64,000 nt of DNA from Obrimoposthia wandeli. Lineage: Eukaryota. This document shows positions 1 through 46,009 of the stretch, one piece after another. The DNA is taken from positions 62,001 to 126,000 of the forward strand of contig CDROCS010003470.1 in assembly GCA_977020255.1 (NCBI GenBank). Reading direction: 5' to 3'. The notes beneath the pieces were generated by a model, which searched no databases, had not been told where the DNA came from, and worked only from the letters and a program-made list of their open reading frames with translations. Both the position numbers and the translations under genes were made by a program. How positions within the stretch are numbered: position 1 is the first letter of the stretch; each line of letters starts with the position of its first letter.

Positions 1-1468
1 TTCCAATTTCAGTTACAAAATTATCATAGTAAACAGTTGCATTATGTGAAATTACTCAAGTTTTAGACTCATCATTGACATTTTTAAACTGCACTGTTGC
101 GCCAAATTGAACCTTAGCCTGTCCTAATTTAGTCACTTCTGATTTTTTAAGACTTTCAATATTTGAATTTACACCTACGTTTAATAAAATTTTATTTCCT
201 AATAGCACCTTAACTATAACATACTTATTATTTAGGTGATACTCTATAGTAGCACCGTTTTCCCTAAGTTTCTTTGGTAAGACCTTATTAAGAAATTGGC
301 CTTGCCTCTTTCTTCCTACTGTTGCTGACAAACCTCCCACTAATTGAATGGGAAGACAACTATTTATATTAAACGATATCGGTGCTGCTGAAGTTGAGGC
401 AATCGCAGCTGATGTAGAAGGTGCTGGTGTGAATGGAGCTGCCGCAGATGATGAGGCGATAGCGTTTGTAGGTGCAACATTTGAGGTTGGGGTCACTCGA
501 TATGCAGTAGCTGATGTCATTGAAGCTGACATTGCTGGCGGGGAAGAACGGGCAGCAGCTGTTGAGACCAATGATGCATCTCCTAAAAGAAATATATTAA
601 AAATATATATATTTATTTTAATTATTACCTCTAAGGCGTGCAAAGATCGATGTAGGCACTAGCGATGGAGGATACATGATTACCACAGTCGACGAAGGAA
701 TCGGTTGTCTCAAGGTATTTCCTGGATTATATATATATATATATATTTAATTACAATTTTAAAAAATAATCAGAAAAATAGTAATAAAAAAATACCTGAT
801 GAAGCTGAATCAACTGTAGCTGGTTGGAAGTCTTCTTCATTGACAGAATTCATCCAGCTGTCGTCTGTTAACTCAAAAAAGTCTGATTCTTCGATGGCCT
901 CCAACCAGCTGTTGTCGCTCTACTGAGGCTGCTCCATCTCGAAATCTGACTGGGTGATATTTTCCATCCAGTCATTGTTCGAGAGTTGGGTTTCTGGCGC
1001 CAATTCCTCAAAGTCTTCTTGGGAGATGACGTTCATCCCCTCATTTTTAGTCATTTGAGTGGATGAGGCAGCTGCAGAATCGAGAGACGGGAGAGAAGAA
1101 CCAATCGCAGGACCGTAAATAGGTTGAAAGGTTGCAACTGGAATAGGAGCAAGAGCTGGAGTGACCTGCGAATCGCGCACCAATTGCACGATAGCTCTGT
1201 TCTTGTTGTTGGCCGTGAAACAGGACAAGTGATCTCGATGTTCATTGAAGAAGTCTCGAAAATCCTTGTCCTTCATATTTCTGTAGAAGGGGTAGACGAA
1301 GAATAGAAGCCCATTAGACTTTGTCCGATAGTAAGCGGACATTATCTCCATACAGGACTCTCCTCCATTCGTAGCCGAAACACCACAATATGCTGGAAAC
1401 AGGTTACACGTAATCTAAAAATAAATATTAATAAAGAAATAAAATATATAGCTTCTTACCATATTCAT
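1..1468 (-). pseudogene. Spliced gene (exons 1468-1460, 1414-796, 721-629, 582-<1), likely the 5' part of a protein-primed DNA polymerase B (terminal-protein side); in-frame TAG 920-922 and TGA 56-58
   Basis: GT-AG introns 1459-1415 (45 nt), 795-722 (74 nt) and 628-583 (46 nt) join ORFs 920..1351 and 56..643 into one frame. C-terminal IQLVGG...NGATIEYHLNN...IESLKKSEVTKLGQAKVQFGATVQFKNVNDESKT*VISHNATVYYDNF resembles, by eye, the region preceding the GSGW/exonuclease part of arthropod Polinton-type pPolB. The frame stays open past the TGA to the window edge. Confidence 0.6.
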
Positions 1469-1504
1469 TATTTAAAAAATCGGGGATTGAAATGTAAAAA
1501 GTGT

Positions 1505-1690
1505 TTGCTTATATACTAAATTTTATGCACACATGTTCTTTTCTTATTGGATGAAAATATTGAATTTATTCTTCCACTGAGAAGGATTGTTTATATGTTA
1601 TTGGTTGATAATATTATTTTTAATATATTTTATTCCTACAATTAAAAAGATTGTTCATTTGCATTTAGGTATTTTGTTATTGGCTGAAAA
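1505..1690 (-). promoter_or_regulatory. Pol II promoter of the pPolB-like gene: TATA box, three CCAAT boxes and an octamer
   Basis: On the minus strand: TATATAA at 1515-1509, about 40 nt upstream of ATG 1468; CCAAT at 1550-1546, 1604-1600 and 1683-1679; ATGCAAAT at 1664-1657. Confidence 0.5.
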
Positions 1691-1870
1691 TTTTAATTTG
1701 TAAATAATGAATTTCTCCAATTAGAATTATTGTTTATCTACATGTCAAGTAATAATAAGATAGTGAAGGAGGCCTTCGTGAGAGATAGAAAAAATGTAGA
1801 GGGAAGAATGAGGAGAGATATGAACAAAATAACTAGATAACGATTTATTGATTAGATCATAATTTTGCAT

Positions 1871-2344
1871 TCATATTAATGTAAACATAGGAAACATAAT
1901 AAAATGCATAAAAAACACAAGGTAATGAGGGTGAGAAAAGGGTAGGGTCACAACAGATAGACTTAAACATTTTTTATATGCACAATGGTCACCATGATCA
2001 CGATATGGACAGCAAATATTTCGTGGAATTTTTAATTTTTAATCACGTGAAATATTTAAGGTATTCAATCTCAATTTTGGAAAATAATTTTTTAAAGTCT
2101 TATACTTTTTGCCATCCAATTCATCTAAATAATAAAAAATTCCGTTTTCAATATCAAAATTAGATTTAATTGTATCGAAAATACATATTTCACAAAAAGC
2201 CTTATGTCTTTCTTTCCATTTTAATAAATGAAAATAATTAGTTAGATATAAATTAGTAAATTTTTTCTTATAATCTAAACTCCTAAACGGGATATCTACA
2301 TGAAAAATGAAATAAAAATGATGGAAAACGTCGCATATATCCAT
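1871..2344 (-). pseudogene. Unknown small protein (101 aa ORF, extendable through TAA 2039-2041 to about 157 codons) with Cys/His clusters
   Basis: ATG-initiated ORF MDICDVFHHF...HKAFCEIC...; the frame continues after the TAA as KLKIPRNICCPYRDHGDHCAYKKC... to TGA 1871-1873. Co-oriented with its neighbours. Confidence 0.45.
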
Positions 2345-2814
2345 AATACATAATTATTTTATAATATAATCTCCATTTATGTTAATGAAAGTCTATAATA
2401 TATTCTTGCATAATTACCCAAATATGTAGTGAATCCCTTTGTTTACAACGAATAAAAATAAAAATCCATTAATCAAAATTTATTATAATATCAAAGTACT
2501 CAGGATTTCTTTTTCTCGTTAGGATTGGTACATATTTTCAATTCTCCTAAGAATATTAGAATAAATTATATTAAATGTAAACCTACCTAAATATTTCGAA
2601 AGTAAATTACATATTTTATCTGCAACAATTTCCGGAATATCATTTTTCGAGAATTATTTTTTTCATAATCTTCCATTAAATCTGAATGTATAATTTATTC
2701 CAATTTATTTTATCAGCCATGTTCTAAAAAATATAATAGATACAATTGTTTATATTTAGTATGCTTATGTAAAATATTTAGACAATTATGTAACACTATA
2801 GATAATCAATAAAG

Positions 2815-3126
2815 TCAAAAAGGAAAATAATTTTCAAAATTATCTTCAGGTTTAATCTGAAGGATTCTCTTTCTTGCAGCTTGCTGATTGTCCTCCATCT
2901 TCACTCCTCTTTTTTCAGCTAGTTGCCTTTGCTCCAATTCAATCTTCCTATTCCACTCCACTATCCGCCGTCGCTCTGCTAGACGCCTGTCTTGAATCTC
3001 CACCCGACGATTCCACTCGGTCACAACAGCAACGTACAGATTCTGATTGAGGACCCTCTTTCTTAAATCTCCTTTCTTATCATTTCTTCTGATGTTTTCT
3101 TTTATTTTCGTCACGTAACTCTGCAT
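2815..3126 (-). CDS. Intact 103 aa SERTA-domain-like protein with a duplicated charged helix
   Basis: ATG at 3126. N-terminus YVTKIKENIRRNDKKGDLRKRVLNQNL resembles the SERTA pattern K-(x)n-DLRRxVLxxNxL. Tandem repeat VTEWNRRVEIQDRRLAERR / IVEWNRKIELEQRQLAEKR. Ends YFPF*. Confidence 0.55.
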   Translation of the reverse strand: MQSYVTKIKENIRRNDKKGDLRKRVLNQNLYVAVVTEWNRRVEIQDRRLAERRRIVEWNRKIELEQRQLAEKRGVKMEDNQQAARKRILQIKPEDNFENYFPF

Positions 3127-3291
3127 TTTAATCAATTAAATTTTTTTTATTTATGAAAAGGTAAATAAATTTGAACATATATATATAAATTTAAAATATT
3201 TTTAATCGAATCACATTCAATTAAATGATATATTTTTATTTATCAAATGAGAGATTATAATTTAATAAATCTATAACTAATCATTGCATTT

Positions 3292-3977
3292 CTATATAAA
3301 TAAACTTATATTTTTGAAATTAAAGAAATTTAAAGACATTTTGGGGAAAGGAGTATTTTCTCCCCATGTCTTCTCAATTATCTGGGTGGATTCCTGCAAC
3401 AACAAAAAACATTAATAAAATTTAAACATATAAATAATTTACCTCAATGACAGGCAGGTTAGCTTGTTTCACCAACTTGTCCTTCTTCCGATGGACCGTA
3501 TGGGTTTTGACCAGATGGCGTCACGGTTTCCTAACCGCCGCTTGCTTTTTATCCACCGGTTGAATAGGTGTCGCCTCTTCGAGAAAGTTCTCCACCTATG
3601 TGAATTATTAAATTTAATATCTAATTAAAAAATAATTTACCTTAGCATTATCTGGAGATGCTAGATATTAGAGCTCACTCCTTGGCAGCTCCTGGCTGCA
3701 TTGACTCGCCAAGTGTTGCGGTTCTATGAACCTCTCTGCCGTGGTCACTGACGGTGCCAAATCCAGTTGAAGTTTCTTAAAATGAAATTAAAAAACATTT
3801 AAAATAAATTAATAGGCTAACCTCATTCGTTGCCGTTATTCTCTTAACAGCACGTATCAAAGATTGCGGCTTTCTGGGCGGTTCAGGCCCCGTATTTTCT
3901 GCTATCGAAGTTGGAGTGAGACCATCCCAATCGTCAGTGAACAGGCACCATTCGTCCTCGTCCAATTCTGCCACCAT
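3292..3977 (-). pseudogene. Four-exon gene (3977-3822, 3775-3641, 3595-3443, 3393-3292), about 181 codons, acidic/aromatic N-terminus, unknown function; in-frame TAA 3668-3670 and TGA 3521-3523
   Basis: Three phase-0 GT-AG introns of 46, 45 and 49 nt, with the first three exons 156, 135 and 153 nt (all multiples of 3). Exons are GC-richer than the introns. Confidence 0.7.
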
Positions 3978-5779
3978 CGACTCGTTTGAAATTTAGAACA
4001 GAAGATTTACATATTTCGATTTTGAATTGGCCATATTGAAGTCCTGTCTTCAACACTTATGAGGACATATGGAAATTAATCTTTCAAATCGTTTACAATA
4101 GCAAAGTATTTCGATCGAATGCAAATATTTTTGGAAGCAGTAAAATAGCCGTTCAAAAATTAAACACAAAACGAAATTATTTCAGACTCTAAAAAAGGAT
4201 ATTTAGTTTTATTTTCTTGTGTCCACAATTTTTCTAAATGATTTAATTTTGTAATAAATAAAATCATAATTTAAAACGAAGTTTGTTGACAATTATTCAT
4301 GTAAGCTAAAAATGTGTGGTTAAAAATTTTGTCGACCAGTATATTATTAATTTTATAATATTTATAAACATTTCTTGTCGAAGTCCCAAAAAGATAACGC
4401 TAGTAATACTATATGTAAATCTTTGTAGATTATAATAAATGTATAAAGCAAGAAAATACGCTAAAGATAATGAAAATGGAAGGAAAAGGAAAATCTCAAA
4501 TTTGATATCAATATTTATTAAGATATTCTTAAACGGTCAGAAACGAGGTTAAATAGTTACAGTATAAAAATTGAAAAAGTGTAAATGTAAAGCAAAAAAC
4601 GACGTATTGTTAGAGACTCTAAAGTAAATAATTTATTTGTTAAAAAGTTAGCAAGATATTTCTTGGTCGTTAAAGATTTTTAAAAATCGTTGTGTGACCC
4701 TCATTTATTATGAATTACTCTTTTTTTTTATTTCGTAAAATAAATGCACTTTAAAATGACAAACTGTCCTGTTTATCAGCCTCACTTCATTGAGATTAAA
4801 AAGGAAAAATACTAAACATATATCATTAACAGAAAATATTTTCGCAATTTATTCTCCTTTCAATTTCATAATAACAACAAAAATCCAATGTATCTAATAA
4901 AGTAAATGAAAAAATAATTCATCTGCATTCTTTTTGAAGTTTAGCTGAGTATTAGGAGTCAATTTAGTAATTACTGAAAACATACTGAAGATACTACTCA
5001 CAAATACACTTTGTTTGATCCTCAAAGGTGATTTAATTGTAACTTTGTTCCTTCTTCATAGTTAAGGATACTTTTAAAATATTTGTATCATCAAAAATCC
5101 TCAAAAAGCATCATTTTGTCTCAACTGTCTCAACTACACAATTTGAAAATTTAGATAATATTATTTTTATCTTTTTTCTCTTCATCAACTTGGAATTATT
5201 AACGCGGAAAGAAATATGGATATTTTCGTAAGAATCGTCAGAAATCTTTATGCAAAGTAGTATTTCCATATTACTGTAGTTCATGTCAGTATTACTGTGT
5301 TCGGGTGTGGAAATTTTATTCAGTCTGCAGATAATATTTTATTCTAAAAGAAGCTAGAAATTACAGAAAAATAACACTACAGAGCAGTAATTAAAGTTAT
5401 ATATATTTTTTTAAATGATCACTAAATCAACGTGGATTTGTTACAATGTTTGATAAAGTTGAAGTGATTAGAGAAAAAGCTTTCTTTTTAAATTTAAGTT
5501 ATTTAGGTTGAAAAGCGGTTTTAAATTAAAACTAAAAGTCCTCAAAAATAGGGTAAGGACATAATCGCAACTGGGCATCTCTGAATATTAAGTAATCAAG
5601 TTTTATCAATTTATTATTTATAACTGTAGAAAACAGAGAAATTTTGAACTAAACAATAACTTTTTTTCGTGTTTCAATGTATTAAATAATTAAAGTTTTA
5701 AACGAAACTGCTTTCCAAAGAATTTTTGCTAGCACAATTTATGTAATAGGTTATATTAAAAAATAATCACCTTCATTTG

Positions 5780-7400: not shown

Positions 7401-7849
7401 GAGACAATTTAAAGGATAGTTTACATAAAAGTAAATATATAATAAATACATCTAAATAACTTATTGTAGTCAAAACACGAAAAACAAGATGGTGATTATT
7501 TATTAGAATTCTGATGGACACTAAAACACATATTATTAAAACAACCGTTTGTTTATTGTTAATCGACTTATCCCCACCAGATCATAAGAATCTTAATCGA
7601 AAACGTAGTCTTGGTATCTTATTGGCCATCGTGTGGTTCTCTTCTCATTCAGTTCTATGTTTCTTCTCGTTTCTACTCTTTGTTTGATTTTCTTAAATTA
7701 AGGAATACTCATTTAATCTCTTCATCGTATCATCATTACGTATTCGTATATCTGATTCATGCTTCGACAGCGTGTTCATATTGGTAGAAACTTGATATTT
7801 ACATGATGATATGATGTCCATTATTGTTCCTTTACTCCACCTTTCTGTA

Positions 7850-9170
7850 CATATTTGGTGTTGGTTGGGTTTTACTCAAACTATATATCCCTTTTTGAAC
7901 TTTGTGTTTATTTCTTCTGTATCATTCATTTTGGCAGGTTCTTTTTTGTATCTGAGTTTGGTCTGTACCTGTATGTAAGCCATGTGGGTGGTTGCATCTG
8001 CTGGCCAGGAATATTGTTAATCCAGTATAAAGCGTCTTGTATGGTTATTTCTCCTCTATATGCTATAGATTTAACAGTACGGTGGTGTCTTTCCACGATT
8101 CCATTTCCACTTGGTCGATTTACAAATCTATATATTGGATCGATTGATCATTTTTCCAACAGCGATTTGAATTCTCTAGAATGAAAACTTGTGAAAATAT
8201 CTACCAAGATTTCGGACAGTGCTCCTCTTTCGTAGAAAATTGATTCCAAATTGTTTAACAATCTCGTTGCTGCTTTCATAAGTCTTCATAAGGCATATCG
8301 CGAGGGCCCACAATCAATAAGTGTGAGATACTTCGTTAAGTCTACGGCCAGTCTAGTCCAATTACTATCGATGTTAAGGTTGCCTTAATCGTCTGGTTTT
8401 CGTAGCCATGATGCATCTTCAATGCTGCTTTCATCAACATCGATTCATACTCCAACTGCCCGTATGCTAGCACCACACCAAATTGTTCCTTTAGAACTTG
8501 TTACGTTCCACTTACCTGTAGCAGGATCAATTTCTTCCATTTTCGTGATCAGCCTTTTCAATTTATCTTCAATGTTCACTTGCACTTTATCATCCCGATT
8601 TCTGCAACATTGTCTCCTTAGGAATGCACAGGCCACACGGATCCAACTTACTATTGGGTAATGTTCAATAACTTGTTCACATGGAATACAAATCTCTTTT
8701 CGTTATATTTTCGATCTGACGTTCTGTAAAATTGACGTTTGATCTTTCCCACCATAGTATATTATTCACTTCTTTGACTGTCAATCATGATACTCTTACT
8801 TCGTTTGATTCATACAATTTTTCTGTTTTTTTGGACAGAATCCATACTTTAAAAAATGTGATGTAACCGTTTCCACTTTCACTTTGGTTTCATCGACGTA
8901 TAAGTCGTCTACGTATACATCAGTCGCTGCTTGAATGTCGGTATCTAATGACAATACTTTATCAACATCAGCTTTCATCACCATTGGAACAATATTCAGA
9001 CCAAATCCCATGCTCTTTTGAAAGGCCTGATGACAAATTATATCCAAGTAGCTACTGGAAACTAGACGATATAGTGACTGTGACGCTAGCTTTGAGAGTC
9101 AATTATATGTATTCAGACAAACATTTCAACCCCCGAGACATCCTGAATCCTTTTCGTCAGATAAATTGAA
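7850..9170 (-). mobile_element. Decayed Gypsy/Ty3 LTR-retrotransposon pol (RT, partial RNase H, integrase)
   Basis: RT MGFGLNIVP...DVYVDDLYVDE; RNase H DPATGKWNV...EDASWLRK; integrase WTRLAVD...YLTLIDCGPSRY...FYERGA...PSGNGIVERHHRTVK. Stops and deletions present. Confidence 0.85.
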
Positions 9171-10294: not shown

Positions 10295-11760
10295 TGTGGG
10301 GACGTTTCGAACTGGCCTTTTTAAAAGTCGGACGTTTTCGCGTAAGTGTGCTTGATCGACCAATCAGTGGCACGATGTTACCATCCGAAAGATTAAGTTT
10401 TGTTTTTGACACGAAATATATTTTGTGCCAATTAAATTTAGTTGAAGATGGTGTTCGTTATTTTTGAGATTTTTAGAAAATTTTATATTTGAGCCAATTT
10501 ATAAGAAATTGTTTTAACTTTTCTGTCCAATTATTCATTCAATTCAGGAATAATTACAAAATGGAGATTATCAATACCAAAAGAGGTGGCATAAAGCTTT
10601 GTTTACGAGGCTTCATCCATACTGTTAAAGTTGTAATGAAATCGATAGATGAAATAATCTGGCGTTGTGTGAAACGTCAGAGTTGTAATGGTGTTATTAA
10701 AACAAACAAAGAGAATGGGAATCATGTTGTTGGCAGAGAAAATACTCACCCTGAAGACCAGACAGCCATGGATATTGAAATGTATTGCCATTAAATGAAA
10801 AGTCAAGCCAGCACTACCAACGAAAAACCCAACCAAATCTCCACATTCTCTAATTCTGATGCTCCAGATTAGGTCAAAACCAAACTCATAGTTGCTGATA
10901 CAGTTAAAAGAGTACTCTATCGTGCTCGTGCCACTCACCGACCTAAAGATCCATAGACTCTACAACAGTTTACTATTGCTGATCATTGGTGCCAGATCAC
11001 TAGTGAAAACCCTACCAACTGCCTCGAGTATGAAAACGGCCCAGATGCACAGGAACGACTTCGTCGTATTTGCTACCGACTCCCATTTGCAACGTCTCGC
11101 CTCTTGTGACACTTGGTGCATGGATGGTACTTTTGCAGTTGCTCCTCACCTATTTCATCAGATGTATAGTGTTTGTATTGGTGTTTGTTTACCTCTTGTC
11201 TATGCTTTGCTCCAGCGTAAATCCCAGGCCACATGCGAAATCAAATTTCGTGTATTAGAGGAACCAGGATGTGATCCGTCTGTGGTGATATTTGATTTGA
11301 ACGAGGTGTACAGCACGCTCTCCAACCTGTGTTTGGTGATCATGTTCATATTCAGTACTGTTTCTACTATCTGACTCAGTCAACATGGCAAAAATTCAGT
11401 CATTAATAATCTTACTAATCTGTATGAAACTGATGACTTTCGTTTATTTAGTGGTAAAATAGATGCACTTGTCTTTTTCCCTACAGATCAGGTCACGGAA
11501 GGCATGAGTCACCTCAGAGAATCAGTCTCAGAAGAATATCGATGCATCCCTCCCATGTTCCTACCAGCACGATGGAACATGCACAATGTCACTATTGCAG
11601 ATCAGCCACGCACCAACAACGTTTCGGAAGGATGGAACAGCAAGTTTCAACCACTTGTTGGATATAATCATCATACAGTCTGGAAGCTCATTGAGTGCTT
11701 ACAAGGAGAGTTTGCTCAGATTTCAAAAATTTCAGAATTTATTTTAACATGGATATTTTA
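10295..11760 (+). mobile_element. MULE (Mutator-like) DNA transposon, FLYWCH plus MULE transposase pseudogene
   Basis: FLYWCH-like MEIINTKRGGIKLCLRGF...WRCVKRQSC...H from 10561; WCMDGTFAVAP...PLVYALLQRK; C-terminal PRTNNVSEGWNSKF. GGACGTTT(T)CG repeats at about 10297-10340 mark a likely left end. Confidence 0.85.
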
Positions 11761-13839
11761 AATTTAATTGAGATTTAAAAAGGATGGATGTGTATTCATT
11801 TTATTTACACCTTTTAAGGTATGAAATCAAAATATTTAGTATTGTAATCTTTGAATATTTAGGGCTGTCCATTATCATCTGGTAAATCACTTATAAAGTT
11901 TTTTGATGATGCACTAAATAGCACAAATTATCAAAACGTTTTTAAATCATTTTTATCTCCTGTTTTGATACCACAAATGTGAGAAAACATATGGAGAATT
12001 ATATCGAGAAGAGTTCATAACAATTCATTGGCATATGTTAACGTAGAACTTTAGAAAATGGTAAATTATTAAACAAAGTAAAGATTTTTTAAAAGGAACA
12101 AGCCAAGAGCTTTATACAAGTTTCTTTTAAAATATAAATAGTTTTTAAAATCATGAAAAATTTTTAGTATACATTTTGATTTTTATCCTAATAAATAACG
12201 TTTTATGTTTTATTTTAAAAGTATTTGTCAGTTACACTTCATATTTTAACATGGATTTTAACTGTATTGTAAATTTTTAAGAAACAAAAATTATCCTAAT
12301 GTTGTGTACTAAAAATATAGAAATAAGAACTAGAAATATGTTTTAGAAAACCTTTTTAATAAAATTGTAAATATATATATAAAAATATCGCACATTATAT
12401 TTAAAAACTGTATAAATTAAATGTTGTTTTCAAACTCAAAATTGTAATTAAAAAAGGTTTTTAACCTTTTTAAAGTATGTCTTATATTATTTATCTTATA
12501 CTCGACGTTGTAATACTTTAATACTGGTTTATTTTATTTAAATCATTCATATGATATTTTATTATTTTAAAATTATACATTGCATTAAAATAAGTACCAC
12601 GCTTCATTTAAAAAATCTACAAACAATATAAGTAAAACGCTATATTACAAACACACAACTAAGTTTGTTTAGCTGATTTTATTTGTAAATATGCTGCAGT
12701 TATTCTGTTTATCTCGTTGATTTTGTATTTTTAAGTGCGATACCTTTTTTGGCGATTCATATTTAAGTGTTATTTATAAACAGAATAAGACAAATTAAAT
12801 TATTAGATTTTTAAAAATTTCACAAATTCTTACTTTACTTAAAATAATAAAATAAACAGTTCAAAATATTCCCACAATTTGTATTGTATGTTTAATTTAC
12901 GCTTTATGTTATTAATATTATAAAATTTAATGACATTTTCTTCCGCAGTCATTTAATGTACTAAAATGAAAAGAACATTAAAAAATTGAATATTCAGAAA
13001 AGCTTTTTATGGGATAATAAAAGTAAAATATGGTTTTATTGTTTAATGTTTTATTACCAAATATTAAGGATGATGAAAATTTTTAGCAAGAAAAACATCA
13101 ATGAAATCGAAATGAAATAAATTATCATTAGATAGATACATATAAGTGGCTGTGAATAGAAATTTATGTAGCAATCTGAGATTAATGGCTAGTAATGTGC
13201 AACGCCCAAATTATGTCTAAGAATCAATTGTAAAACTACCGGGTATCTTACAGTGAATTCCTTCCAACATCGAAAGTATTATATCTACGAAAAAATCAAT
13301 TTATAGATAATTTATAGATTTTTTTATCAAATGAGCAGTGATTTTTTAATTGAAAATTTGATCATCGTGTAGCAATGTTTCACAACGGAGAACTTGATTA
13401 TATTCTGCAGAATTTTTATCAAACGTAATTGTAGAGTAATTCTTAGATTATTTGAAGCAGCTTATTGACACTCAATTGACAAGAAGTCAATACCATCAGT
13501 GTTAAATCATAATAAGTCATAACATAAGACATAACTTTATTCCATTAAATCGATCACAAACTTTTAAATTTCAATTAATTAATATTTAAGCCTTGGAAAC
13601 ATTTTGCAATATCAATAAAAATAACATTAAGATCACATAGTCTGGATGATCAAATACAGTAAATTTCATGATGAAAGTCAAGTGAAGAGTATGCAAAACA
13701 ATCCTTTCCATACTCCACTAAGGGTGTATATTATTATATAAAATACATGATCTTTTTACATTCTCTAATTTTATCAAACTAGATCAATTAACAACTTAAC
13801 GGACTCAATTTAATGTAGCGGTTACACCATTAATTTATT

Positions 13840-35599: not shown

Positions 35600-36805
35600 A
35601 TACTGGATAATTATCTAAAGATATATGAAAAGCCAACAGATTCACCAGACAAAAAAAGTCAACCAAAGAAAAATTAAAGGTGCAACAGACTATAAAGAGG
35701 ATTATCTGAAATTCAGTTTCGTGTCATCCAATAATTCTCCTCATTGTGAGCTTCAATGGATCATATGCCCTAAAAGGTGGTCAAATTAAGCAATACAATT
35801 GCTGAGTCACTCATTTACCATCTTGTGAGGAAATTGTCAAAACTAACCCTGGAATCAAGACTGTGAAAGAAATTGAAAAGTAACTCTTTCGAATAATACA
35901 ATCGCAGAACGACCATTAATTCAAAGAATTTGTGAATTAAAAAAAACACTACATATTAATGAATGTACGGTCGTTAGCAACTGTTGTCTTTTAATTGCAC
36001 TTGTTCGAATTTCTGAAAATAAATTCTTGAAAAAGCATTAAAAGCTTTAAATTTATTCTGCAAAGAACTTCAAAAAGAGACAGCTCGAATTCTAAAACTT
36101 GTAGAACAACATCTACGCAAGCTCAAGGAAAAGCTTCTTCATGACTTCGAATTAACGGAGACAAAGAAGTTTGATTGGGTGGGAAATCCATTTAGATCTT
36201 TATCAGAGCACTTTGCATTTGATTTAGCAATGAAAGAAAATGGAAGAGCTCTGGACTTTAAAAATGATCGCACGTTTGAAGTTGAGTTTAAAGATATTCC
36301 ATTAACTCAGTTTTGGTCAGTGATAGAAAAGACGTTTCCATCTATCGGAGAAATAACTATAAAGATTCTTTTACCATTTGCTACAATATATCTATAAAAA
36401 TCTCGATCATGAATAACATGTAAATATTTTGACCATAGGCTCTAATATAAAAAGCTGTGTTCGCAGAAGCAAGCTCAAGTATCTCACTAAAATGAGAAGG
36501 TACTATAAGTATTACTTGATGTGAGTTTTTTTGTATTTCAGATTGAATTAATGTTGATGCTAAAAAATGTTTTTTTATAAAATAAACTGTACATTTTACA
36601 AAGTCAGCAATCTTTTTGTGCATATTCAAGCTTACTTTTGTATACATAATAATTATATAAAATAAATGTCTTAAAATTGTTGTTCTTATTTATTATAACC
36701 TGAGTTTAAAAATGTAATGTTAAAAGAAAACTGTTTCTTCTGTGAGCCGTGAAAGTATTCATATTTGAAAAGTGTGCTGTGGCATGAAAAGATTGGGAAA
36801 CACTG
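35600..36805 (+). mobile_element. hAT-Charlie (ZBED5/SCAND3-like) internally deleted transposase with right TIR
   Basis: TIAESLI..EEIVK; EIEK..SNNTI; WVGNPF...DRTFEVEFKDIPLTQFW...ILLPFATIYL; terminus AAGATTGGGAAACACTG ending at 36805. Confidence 0.8.
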
Positions 36806-44400: not shown

Positions 44401-44719
44401 ATCAAATTATGTTCATTCTGTCGTTGAAAGTGAATATATCTTTATGTTTACTGTGTTATTAAGTACATTTAATTTAATTGAAATCCTTTGTTCAGGGCCT
44501 AAATGTTTTTCACCTTTAATGTTTTAGTAATTGTTACTCGCAGAAATATTTGTAGATCTATATTGAATTTTTGTATTAATTACATTTAGACTTAAATTAT
44601 CCTGCATTAAATTTCAATTTGTTAATTCACCTATTAATAAAAAGCATACGTTTATTCTAAAATAATTACCAACAACAAAAATGGATATGCATCTTTAAAG
44701 AATGATCCAAATTTTATTC

Positions 44720-44920
44720 ATATGACAGTAAATCATAGTATGAATTTCGTAGACACAGAAACATCATCACACACGCCAATAATGGAAAGCACTAGGCAGA
44801 ACGCCAAAAACGTTCATGTTTGGGACTCATCAAAATATGTTAGACTCTTATTTGTGCGAGTTCCCTTAGAGACATTTGAAAAAGATAAAAGTGGATGCAT
44901 TTTGAATAACTTTTACCTGA
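44720..44920 (+). mobile_element. Merlin (ISXO2-like) transposase fragment
   Basis: TVNHSMNFVDTETSSHTPIMESTRQNAK (cf. TVNHSxNFVDPxTGAHTQxIESxW). Confidence 0.65.
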
Positions 44921-46009
44921 CATCTGTGAAGTTTGGTGTGGATTTTAATAAAGATATGATTTTATTATTGAACTGAGAAAATCACTATTCTTAAAATTCT
45001 GACGGAAACAATGTTAAAGTATTAGTTCAACAAAAAATTATCAGAGATAAATATAATAAATTTTTATACATAATAATATTGTTTTAACGTTAAGTTGCTA
45101 AGGTTTCATAAATTTATGCATTTTGAATTGAATGCACATTTCGATGCTTTTAAGCTACTGTCTAATTTGTAGTATTCAAGCCATTCTCGATGGTCGTTAT
45201 ATTTAATTAATAGTATAAAAACTTGGATAATGGTTTTGATGATACCATGCAGTTTAAAAACATAAATAAATACTTTTTTATTCCTATAAACTTTATCTAT
45301 ATGGAATTATTATGATATCGGTTGTTTGAAGGAATTCAAAAAAGAGACTGTTGAGATATAGTTTGTAGATTTTTGTGAAAGCTTAGAATTCAACTTTTTT
45401 ATACTGATAAATTAGAGCTCAATATGCTTTCATTTTAATTCTAAATATTTTATCATACATAGGAAGGAAATCAGACATTTGAAAAATATAATTTTAACAG
45501 ATTGAGCAATTTCCACACATTATTATTAAATTAATCCTCAGATAATCGAAACCGATCTACTCACCAACAAAATATATGTATAATATATTGATATGCTTAT
45601 CATAGATGAAATAGAACGAAACGAATTAAAATAATTATAACTGCGTCATTTTGTTACATTTGTTTTAATATGCAAACATCAATCTAAATTTGGATTTTCT
45701 AAGTTTTAAGTTTTGTTCAGCTGAGTTTTTGCAGTAATTTAATTAGTAAGATATTTAGCCAAAAAAAAATGAAAAAGAACTACTGTGATATAAATTTATA
45801 AAGGTTTTAAAGAAAATTAAAAAATTGAAGCTTTAATTATACCTTATGAAAAGTCTGATATAAATGAAATATTTATATTTACAGTCTACTCGTTATTCTG
45901 ACTTCTCTAATCTGTTACCCTCGTTTATTCGGCATAATTTAATATAATTGGAAATATAGGCAATGATTATAACAATAAGATATATGTTTATGATAACGAC
46001 GAAGACATT

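Follow-up and report, generated by a model that had tools for sequence, protein, structure and literature searches.

The first 4,050 nucleotides of the 64,000-nucleotide stretch of Obrimoposthia wandeli DNA analysed here (the window) carry a compact minus-strand gene array with short GT-AG stretches, and raise the question of what this array belongs to and whether its genes are spliced. A sequence-only reading had seen in it an intron-containing Polinton/adintovirus-type element with four genes, some of them putative mimics of host regulators. The first part is answered by the 11 kb to the left of the window, which contain a terminal repeat as well as polymerase, integrase, ATPase, capsid-like, protease and TBP-like genes. 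Positions 1–3986 belong, with high probability, to a high-copy Maverick/Polinton, of which they form the truncated and decayed right arm. The polymerase gene (pPolB) of this element starts at position 1462, and both pPolB and gene A are interrupted by GT-AG stretches that the host spliceosome would likely remove.

Identity, copies and decay of the element

The integrase of the left flank (L001) matches rve PF00665 (E 9.9e-13) and the TBP-like gene matches a TBP profile (E 2.5e-9). The flanking polymerase is 47% identical over ~850 aa to the 1298-aa polymerase of a relative, L073, and the capsid-like, ATPase, integrase and TBP genes are 34–70% identical to their L073 counterparts. The polymerase stretch of the window itself gave no match in the Pfam search, and the clade member L084 matches PF03175 (family B polymerase) at E 2.5e-30. 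A fragment of the A32/FtsK ATPase matches PF04665 at E 0.018; the flanking gene is 58–70% identical to the L073 ATPase, which matches the same profile at 4.8e-6. The adenain-like cysteine protease shows its His and Cys motifs at L001 6430–6770, with matches to PF00770, all below the curated cut-off, at E 0.05 (copy L016), 0.0026 (L060) and 4.8e-4 (relative L076). The capsid-like genes have no Pfam match and are 34–57% identical to ORFs of fitting size and place in L073 and L083, and are only candidates for the major (double jelly-roll) and minor (single jelly-roll) capsid proteins.

The left end of the element lies at L002:8941. Its termini start with AGTAGG, and in many copies this sequence recurs in inverted orientation at the right end. 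Both repeats are present in other copies, where three of six paired ends show a perfect 6-bp target duplication and the remaining three show none. The element is multicopy (103 matches among 40 scored candidates, identity mostly 80–89%), with two subfamilies that are ~75–80% identical. These data establish the identity of the element and the structure of its copies, and bear out the Polinton/adintovirus-type assignment through a catalytic polymerase and virion genes (the capsid as capsid-like ORFs only). The contrary outcome, a cellular match for the 582–1 domain with neither polymerase catalytic motifs nor viral genes leftward, falls away because such genes adjoin it on that side.

The window copy is damaged. 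Its right boundary lies at ~3986 and not at 4050 as first drawn, and the right terminal repeat is lost, so gene A lacks its start. Of the other copies, 17/17, 20/20, 39/40 and 26/28 lack the in-frame stops that it has at 3670, 3523, 922 and 58, respectively. A segment of ~1.1 kb with the last exons of gene A is deleted at 3339–3344, and a 192-bp TG..CA insertion with a 5-bp duplication (1764–1955, unstranded), likely a solo LTR, is private to this copy. Comparison among copies demonstrates purifying selection on the exons: in 10 of the 14 coding blocks, synonymous changes make up 44–95% of the variants common to at least four copies (Fisher p < 0.05 versus singletons), against 9–23% in five controls. 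For pPolB exon 3, the linker, gene C and TBP the test fell short of significance (p 0.68, 1.0, 0.07 and 0.12).

Genes A, B and C

The co-oriented minus-strand array stands, except that its fourth gene is no separate gene and forms the 5' part of pPolB. In the window, gene A lacks both of its ends. The 3' part of its exon 1 (3822–3986) is present without start and TATA box, and the full exon, as seen in fuller copies, has a dN/dS of 0.42. Exon 2 (3641–3775, dN/dS 0.36) and the basic exon 3 (3443–3595, dN/dS 0.19, with 18 synonymous shared variants and one that is not) contain the private stops 3670 and 3523, and the start of the next exon (3344–3393) borders the deletion. Two SUMO-binding-like motifs occur in fuller copies, and gene A may encode a disordered nuclear regulator that would bind SUMO and transcription factors via short motifs, a tentative assignment that we place somewhat below an even chance.

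Gene B (2815–3126) is intronless and encodes a basic protein of ~103 aa (dN/dS 0.33) with at least 150 near-identical stop-free matches. It has no Pfam match and, as in the earlier reading, is assigned to no family. Its composition suggests that it is probably a coiled coil, and a structural or adaptor role is conceivable without being the likelier outcome. A possible 70-codon gene at 2519–2720, broken here and absent from the second subfamily, is open to the same stop in 4 of 28 copies and runs slightly longer in one more.

Gene C (1734–2411) encodes 162 aa in stop-free copies and is broken in the window by stops, a frameshift and the 192-bp insertion, which lies in its last codons. It had also been called unassignable, but belongs to a family of 183 database proteins with a DEDD/Maelstrom-like pattern. 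The residues E-C-H-C are kept in sequence order (E31 60/60, C144 59/60, H149 59/60, C153 60/60). The predicted model is poor (pLDDT 38.7); with it, Foldseek E-values run from 0.2 to 0.5, the best five rows (E 0.2–0.4) being Maelstrom, and VIA gives 5af0 at Z 3.3 (rmsd 4.8, 118 aligned), with many DEDD nucleases tied at Z 3.2–3.9. The Pfam Maelstrom profile matched 0/60 members at E up to 0.1, and a PF13017 search of the genome gave one weak match (E 0.38). The pattern points to a DEDD-fold protein of the Maelstrom/arenavirus-ExoN type as the probable identity, which would likely bind RNA rather than work as a standard exonuclease.

Gene C could instead have no link to small-RNA silencing and be an active 3'-5' nuclease that works on RNA or on the DNA ends of the element itself. 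Most members keep the first DEDD motif (D16 57/60, E18 51/60) and the late His (H152 58/60), and relatives have the gene next to the polymerase (3/85 loci), but the expected second acidic site is Lys in 59/59 and the position five residues after the late His is acidic in 0/60, these two positions being assigned from the known DEDD motifs. This leaves the nuclease a serious candidate, if the less probable one. A canonical DEDDh exonuclease was rejected, since only the first two of the four acidic catalytic residues are kept.

Predicted introns and the polymerase leader

The six short introns of the sequence-only reading are confirmed, as predictions, in place, length (45–74 nt), GT-AG ends and frame. 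Copies were scored for GT-AG at both ends. On the minus strand of gene A lie A1 (3776–3821, 46 nt; 21/24 copies, 12/12 in the better-kept set), A2 (3596–3640, 45 nt, with an in-frame stop inside; donor 21/21, acceptor AG 20/21) and A3 (3394–3442, 49 nt; 17/20 and 13/13), all in phase 0. A2 scores at both ends in 12/21 copies, owing to a sub-lineage in which a 12-nt in-frame insertion follows the acceptor. On the same strand, pPolB contains D1 (1415–1459, 45 nt, phase 0, with an in-frame stop at its end; 37/40 and 25/25), D2 (722–795, 74 nt, phase 1; 29/39 and 17/17) and D3 (583–628, 46 nt, phase 1; 28/36). Their GC content is 10–14% versus 44–46% in the flanking exons, and once they are removed gene A and the last gene (D) each read in a single frame, where the unspliced reading meets 12 and 7 stops.

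A second set of 26 better-preserved copies, biased to well-kept ones because it was chosen by protein match, has GT-AG ends in 78 of 79 scored introns. Splice dinucleotides are retained in 347/382 cases (0.91) versus 470/668 (0.70) and 122/139 (0.88) in two spacer controls, that is, only slightly above the higher control. A strict chance filter, which recovers only two of the six introns, finds these 2 on the minus strand of 1–4050, 0 on the plus strand and 0 in the remaining 59.9 kb. Across the element, predicted GT-AG introns of 35–87 nt are present in all or most copies of pPolB, the protease gene (16/16) and the TBP-like gene (10/13), and a GT-AG intron of 47 nt also occurs in the TBP gene of the host. 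The boundaries are thereby established, and removal of the six stretches by the host spliceosome is likely on sequence grounds. Intron A3 is part of an exon-plus-intron unit of ~210–225 nt present one to three times in tandem in other copies. We favour, with reasonable confidence, a history in which introns sit in weakly constrained 5' regions, would have been gained and lost between lineages, and multiplied by tandem duplication of such units.

The polymerase gene opens with a TATA box (1508–1515, minus strand) ~50 nt upstream of the start, an element found in 48 of 53 starts versus 7.7% of background windows. The start codon stands alone at the end of exon 1 (1460–1462, ATG at 1462). Exon 2 (796–1414; dN/dS 0.37 and 0.46; private stop 922) encodes a Cys/His domain of ~85 aa, a probable zinc binder, followed by four acidic Trp/Phe repeats. 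Exon 3 (629–721) contributes 31 linker codons (dN/dS 1.02, no selection signal), and the 5' part of exon 4 (1–582, stop at 58) carries a Ser/Thr/Ala linker, a QxGxG-type motif (346–332) and the terminal-protein-position domain; the vOTU, exonuclease and polymerase domains follow beyond the left edge of the window. The proposal that 582–1 is a pPolB N-terminus is thus upheld.

In relatives the start Met lies a few residues ahead of the first Cys, and 14 of 154 homologues match the exon-2 finger. Six metagenome relatives (L071, L072, L073, L074, L079 and L084) encode the whole chain from the zinc finger through acidic repeats, linker and QxGxG to terminal protein and polymerase in one unbroken frame, which exceeds 1200 codons in five and in L079 is open to the contig end; seven others appear split, mostly at positions other than here. 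A single copy in 30 can be read without a stop from the D3 acceptor through the window edge, over 451 codons, and only 2/30 are open for at least 200 codons past D3, so the fusion of finger and polymerase rests mainly on the relatives. The QxGxG pattern is present in only 10/40 copy alignments. With a slight preference, we read the polymerase as a polyprotein whose leader (zinc finger and acidic repeats) would be cut at QxGxG, either by the adenain-like protease or by the vOTU, so that the released terminal protein could prime replication. Chances are balanced that host RNA polymerase II would transcribe the integrated element, using its TATA promoters and perhaps aided by the element's own TBP-like protein.

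A different product, which we consider unlikely, would be a stand-alone zinc finger and acidic-repeat transactivator made mainly from exons 1–2, with D2 retained or an alternative end, the polymerase then starting at a later Met in exon 4. Unspliced D2 reaches a stop within a few codons, hence a ~210-aa protein, D2 and D3 are the least conserved introns around an exon free of selection signal, and Met codons exist in the linker; yet finger and polymerase share one frame in the six relatives, and in most copies phase 1 and the GT-AG ends are retained at D2 as well as at D3. Both products may coexist through alternative splicing.

The accessory region could also have been an early region of oncogene-like mimics (Oncoids) binding Rb-type regulators and forcing S phase. 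As in adintoviruses, where earlier work has placed an accessory region upstream of PolB, motif-rich genes lie upstream of the polymerase and a CxxC motif is present (PMC8502044); genes A and D bear acidic, aromatic short motifs. Unlike in Oncoids, the single CxxC in pPolB exon 2, invariant in 14 aligned rows, is part of the leader fused to the polymerase, and neither the Rb-binding LxCxE nor the E1A CR1 motif was found in the coding frame of the 11 natural exon or gene translations (0/11 each), a scan of all frames giving scattered LxCxE in only 1–4 of 30–43 alignments. With no Rb-binding motif found, the S-phase mimics proposed earlier are unsupported, and this reading is improbable. That the AT-rich stretches are unspliced decayed insertions or low-complexity spacers in a host pseudogene cluster or junk is highly improbable: the window copy has stops, a deletion and an insertion, and splicing is a prediction from the DNA, but the stretches recur with identical positions and ends and freely varying lengths, often not multiples of three, in both subfamilies, coding selection flanks them, homology resumes in frame after every one, and viral genes lie on the left.

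Implications and comparison with known elements

The predicted introns interrupt both polymerase and protease near their starts in all copies, which implies that elements, while active, would have needed splicing in the nucleus. Annotation based on ORFs would shorten pPolB and overlook the leader; junction reads offer a simple read-out of whether and where the family is expressed, and close relatives, which differ in whether a given gene has introns, form a compact system for intron gain and loss. Should gene C be a Maelstrom-like RNA binder, it would be a directly testable candidate for a transposon-encoded counter to piRNA silencing. More speculatively, and with rather low probability, this Maverick clade may have its own nuclear host-like programme, in which a TBP-like factor for TATA promoters, a spliceosome-dependent start of polymerase and protease, repeated intron gain and loss, and a mini Maelstrom-like decoy or antagonist of the piRNA pathway would explain its spread to hundreds or thousands of copies.

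In adenovirus E2B, a tiny upstream exon supplies the start codon of terminal protein and polymerase, and the precursor terminal protein is trimmed by the viral protease. The pPolB start is placed likewise, and a comparable trimming by the element's protease is proposed here, but adenovirus makes its terminal protein separately from the polymerase and is not known to integrate.

The Maelstrom (MAEL) domain has a C-x2-H spacing; gene C, at only ~160 aa, has C-x4-H, an extra CxxC and no profile match. It resembles MAEL and the arenavirus NP exonuclease (PMC2628886, PMC7968707) in its predicted RNase H start, E..H..C-H-C pattern and incomplete DEDD site, and differs in keeping the first D-x-E and late His without the other two acidic residues. 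'MAEL' labels stand on adintovirus maps (PMC8502044 Fig S2); no description of this reading of gene C was found in the literature searched.

As in known Maverick/Polinton sets, pPolB, rve integrase, ATPase, protease, capsid-like genes, terminal inverted repeats and a 6-bp duplication are found, accessory regions lie at the flanks and most copies are decayed. Core genes are described as intronless in the vertebrate (PMC8097293) and nematode sets (10.1101/2022.07.12.499685), the latter with introns only in cargo genes; against this usual description, which is not a strict criterion, pPolB, protease and TBP-like gene carry predicted introns here. No account of spliced protease and TBP genes or of the patchy intron pattern of Mavericks was found in the literature searched. 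With Polinton pPolB, as far as the available part of its description goes (10.1101/2024.03.18.585575), the element shares the TP-vOTU-exo-palm order and a vOTU Cys motif right after the terminal-protein-position domain, and differs by its extra leader (Cys/His, four acidic repeats, Ser/Thr/Ala linker, QxGxG) on predicted spliced exons. Introns within an integrated element are also seen in the introner-laden Maverick-like elements of dinoflagellates, where introners are mobile and mostly inserted after integration (PMC11957031); here, in contrast, no look-alike repeats occur across genes except the tandem units, and the introns, common to all copies at fixed sites, were therefore passed on through replication of the element.

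Identity, ends and copies of the element

The source genome (1.35 Gb) is AT-rich, and window 1–4050 used as a genome query returned 103 matches from 40 scored candidates, mostly 80–89% identical. In the 11 kb to the left of the window lie an rve integrase (E 9.9e-13), an ATPase fragment, a polymerase that shares 47% identity with its counterpart on the metagenome contig L073, capsid-like genes recognized by sequence comparison and an adenain-like protease. A TBP-like gene of the same element (left flank, L001:863–1420, plus strand; PF00352, E 2.5e-9) is placed about 9 kb from the window. The left end of the element falls at L002:8941; this end sequence is found inverted at the right end of many copies, and a perfect 6-bp duplication is seen at three of six paired ends. 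On the strength of these genes, the terminal repeats and the 6-bp duplications, the element at window 1–3986 is classed as a Maverick/Polinton, which bears out the Polinton/adintovirus-type element proposed in the sequence-only reading.

Further traces of such elements surround it. At window 61113 (minus strand) and 63676 (plus strand) the same Maverick family has two more terminal-repeat ends, and directly to the left of the element L002:66–3231 holds pieces of another, more diverged Maverick with polymerase and capsid-like matches. In the copy at L050 the terminal repeat contains a sub-terminal unit of 80 bp that is repeated in tandem about ten times (L050:2655–3588). Two unassigned reading frames lie in the interval from the left terminal repeat to the TBP-like gene (L002:9421–9735, minus strand), a region also present at four other loci (L054, L064, L067 and L016), and are possibly one spliced gene. 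A 192-bp TG..CA insertion with a 5-bp duplication (window 1764–1955), likely a solo LTR, is private to the window copy. The frames at window 7810–8184, 10892–11761, 36023–36397 and 44641–44976 resemble remnants of other transposons, and no long host exon was seen among the window frames of at least 110 aa.

Predicted introns and the genes around them

Six minus-strand introns, whose splicing is predicted from the sequence, interrupt gene A (3821–3776, 3640–3596 and 3442–3394; A1–A3) and the 5' part of the polymerase gene (1459–1415, 795–722 and 628–583; D1–D3). Their GC content is 10–14% versus 44–46% for the flanking exons, and the reading frame is kept on their removal. The earlier observation was largely right, all six frame-restoring GT-AG introns lying at the places it implied and the element type being correct, while its gene models were partly wrong. 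In other copies GT-AG is found at both ends of D1 in 37/40, D2 in 29/39, D3 in 28/36, A1 in 21/24 and A3 in 17/20, and for A2 the donor is kept in 21/21 and the acceptor in 20/21. In 26 better-kept copies of other sub-lineages, picked by protein match, 79 introns were scored; 78 of these have GT-AG ends, and intron length differs by lineage. Because the copies differ from one another mostly by neutral decay, splice sites are retained overall (347/382) far more often than the same dinucleotides in one spacer control (470/668) and only slightly more often than in another (122/139).

Selection on the exons is a stronger argument for the introns than splice-site retention. In 10 of 14 coding blocks, the variants common to at least four copies show an enrichment of synonymous changes (18:1 in A exon 3; p 2e-7 in A exon 1, 0.003 in the finger of the polymerase leader and 0.001 in gene B), an enrichment absent from one spacer and four wrong-frame controls; the test fell short of significance for two parts of pPolB, exon 3 and the linker, and also for gene C and the TBP-like gene. 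Over window 1–4100, the reads of four runs from one sample, of a kind not given, cover introns and spacers alike and none of the 15 listed read joints (532 more being unlisted) matches an intron. Therefore, these reads look like DNA and are uninformative on expression.

Gene A is represented in the window by a middle fragment, with homology to other copies ending near position 3986 and some 1.1 kb missing at 3339–3344. In fuller copies the gene begins at a distance of about 800 nt from the right repeat, with a TATA box ahead of it. There the first exon is acidic (net charge -32) and carries two YIDL[LT]xQDS motifs, which resemble SUMO-interacting motifs, and the last exon is basic. Gene B is intronless and basic, and its genome matches (at least 150, stop-free, with at least 98% protein identity) point to a younger subfamily, whose loci (L163–L174) are 92–98% alike and devoid of the region of a 70-codon ORF. 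No homologues of genes A and B were found at any of 85 related loci. Genes A, B and C, the 70-aa ORF and exon 2 of the polymerase leader gave no significant Pfam match, the best row over all of them being zf-Sec23_Sec24 (E 0.0023, below the cut-off). LxCxE and CR1 are absent from every coding frame tested, leaving unsupported the S-phase-forcing mimics that had been suggested.

The polymerase leader and gene C

The last gene, to which 582–1 belongs, was formerly taken as separate and continues into the polymerase. In one of 30 copies 451 codons are open from the D3 acceptor, past the left edge of the window and into a vOTU and zinc-binding region (this stretch as a query matched 639 representatives), and in six metagenome loci the finger, a QxGxG-type motif, the domain at the terminal-protein (TP) position and the polymerase share one unbroken frame. 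The pPolB-N-terminus-like domain at the end of the gene had been recognized correctly. The frame in the six loci opens with a Met a few residues ahead of the first Cys, which supports the lone ATG placed ahead of intron D1. The domain order, with the TP label assigned here by position, is the TP-vOTU-exonuclease-palm order described in 10.1101/2024.03.18.585575.

The Cys/His domain of exon 2 was matched in 14 of 154 stored proteins, at the N-terminus and in up to three tandem repeats. A model of this finger (pLDDT 71; core 80–90) found no match at E 0.001 in the viral and PDB libraries, and its best VIA rows, the Serrate/ARS2 fingers (Z 3.9, rmsd 4.1, 54 aligned), neither name the fold nor show novelty. 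A GRF-type finger was also considered and was not among the Pfam matches. Four acidic Trp/Phe repeats follow the finger in 42/42 alignments, and 48 of 53 pPolB starts have a TATA box upstream against a background of 7.7%, in related copies whose counts are not independent. The QxGxG pattern appears in 10 of 40 copy alignments; from its position and the specificity of adenain, we infer cleavage at this motif. When longer proteins were searched by words with the terminal-protein region as query, 0 of 473 candidates matched, and a PDB sequence search gave no match for the polymerase core.

Where gene C (2411–1734) is free of stops, it encodes a protein of 162 aa. Its 183 relatives, about 150–220 aa long, carry no Pfam annotation, and its homologues adjoin the polymerase in 3 of the 85 related loci. 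The conserved residues are a D-x-E, an invariant Glu located 13 positions farther along, a His, a CxxC motif and a C-terminal C-x4-H-x2-H-C; of the acidic DEDD positions, the second and third are not conserved. Before the fold search these residues were read as the E-C-H-C pattern that PMC2628886 and PMC7968707 describe for Maelstrom and arenavirus NP. With a poor model (pLDDT 38.7), the top five places go to Maelstrom chains and most of the next ones to other DEDD nucleases; no match is significant. The gene C profile found no PDB sequence match, and none of 187 pattern matches in IMG/VR was confirmed.

Introns across the clade and published elements

Other genes of the element are also interrupted. 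The protease has an intron after its first codons (L001:6399–6440, plus strand; GT-AG in 16/16 copies), and the TBP-like gene a single intron of 35–40 nt in 10 of 13 copies, being unsplit in the metagenome relatives L073 and L083. The protease frames of the relatives L071 and L076 also lack an in-frame upstream Met. A genome search with the TBP-like family gave at least 150 matches, nearly all of those listed at E ~1e-10; at one locus (L156, G000:C238:871991–875236) two host-type TBP genes stand back to back, one of them with a 47-nt intron at 1860–1906. This intron in the host's own TBP gene suggests that the host is an animal.

Seven metagenome relatives have AT-rich GT-AG candidate introns of 42–52 nt in the 5' region of the polymerase; where the finger and TP parts can be aligned, their positions differ from those described here. 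An automated intron-chain test gave a stop-free chain in L076 and L078 (run to the contig end in L078) and none for L081; the labels of L075, L080, L082 and L083 were assigned by inspection. A vOTU-region tree of 27 rows, of which 14 are labelled for intron state, needs four changes of the label, at least two of them forced by well-supported branches, and places L084, which has no introns, together with four loci that do in a clade of 100/100 support. With the labels shuffled, 177 of 500 trials come out as low, so intron state clusters no more than shuffled labels do, and the tree does not separate gain from loss. The exon-plus-intron unit of gene A (about 210–225 nt) is present one to three times depending on the copy, and repeated units are seen in the polymerase leaders of L075 (1–480; two units, each with a QxGG motif) and L076 (1590–2250), which suggests tandem duplication as one visible route by which intron number may grow.

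In PMC8502044, Oncoid genes are placed upstream of PolB, 'MAEL' labels adintovirus maps four times and TBP appears in a figure legend; the sequence files of that work may already hold this polymerase clade. PMC8097293 describes intact vertebrate Mavericks without introns, 10.1101/2022.07.12.499685 intronless core genes with intron-bearing cargo genes, and PMC11957031 introners in dinoflagellate elements; passages of 10.1101/697771, 10.1101/2024.03.25.586562 and 10.1101/2023.08.22.554363 contain nothing on spliced core genes. Among the openly available papers that the literature searches turned up, none was found to describe a spliced pPolB leader. The element is of a known kind, with an unusual core predicted to be spliced and a Maelstrom-like passenger.
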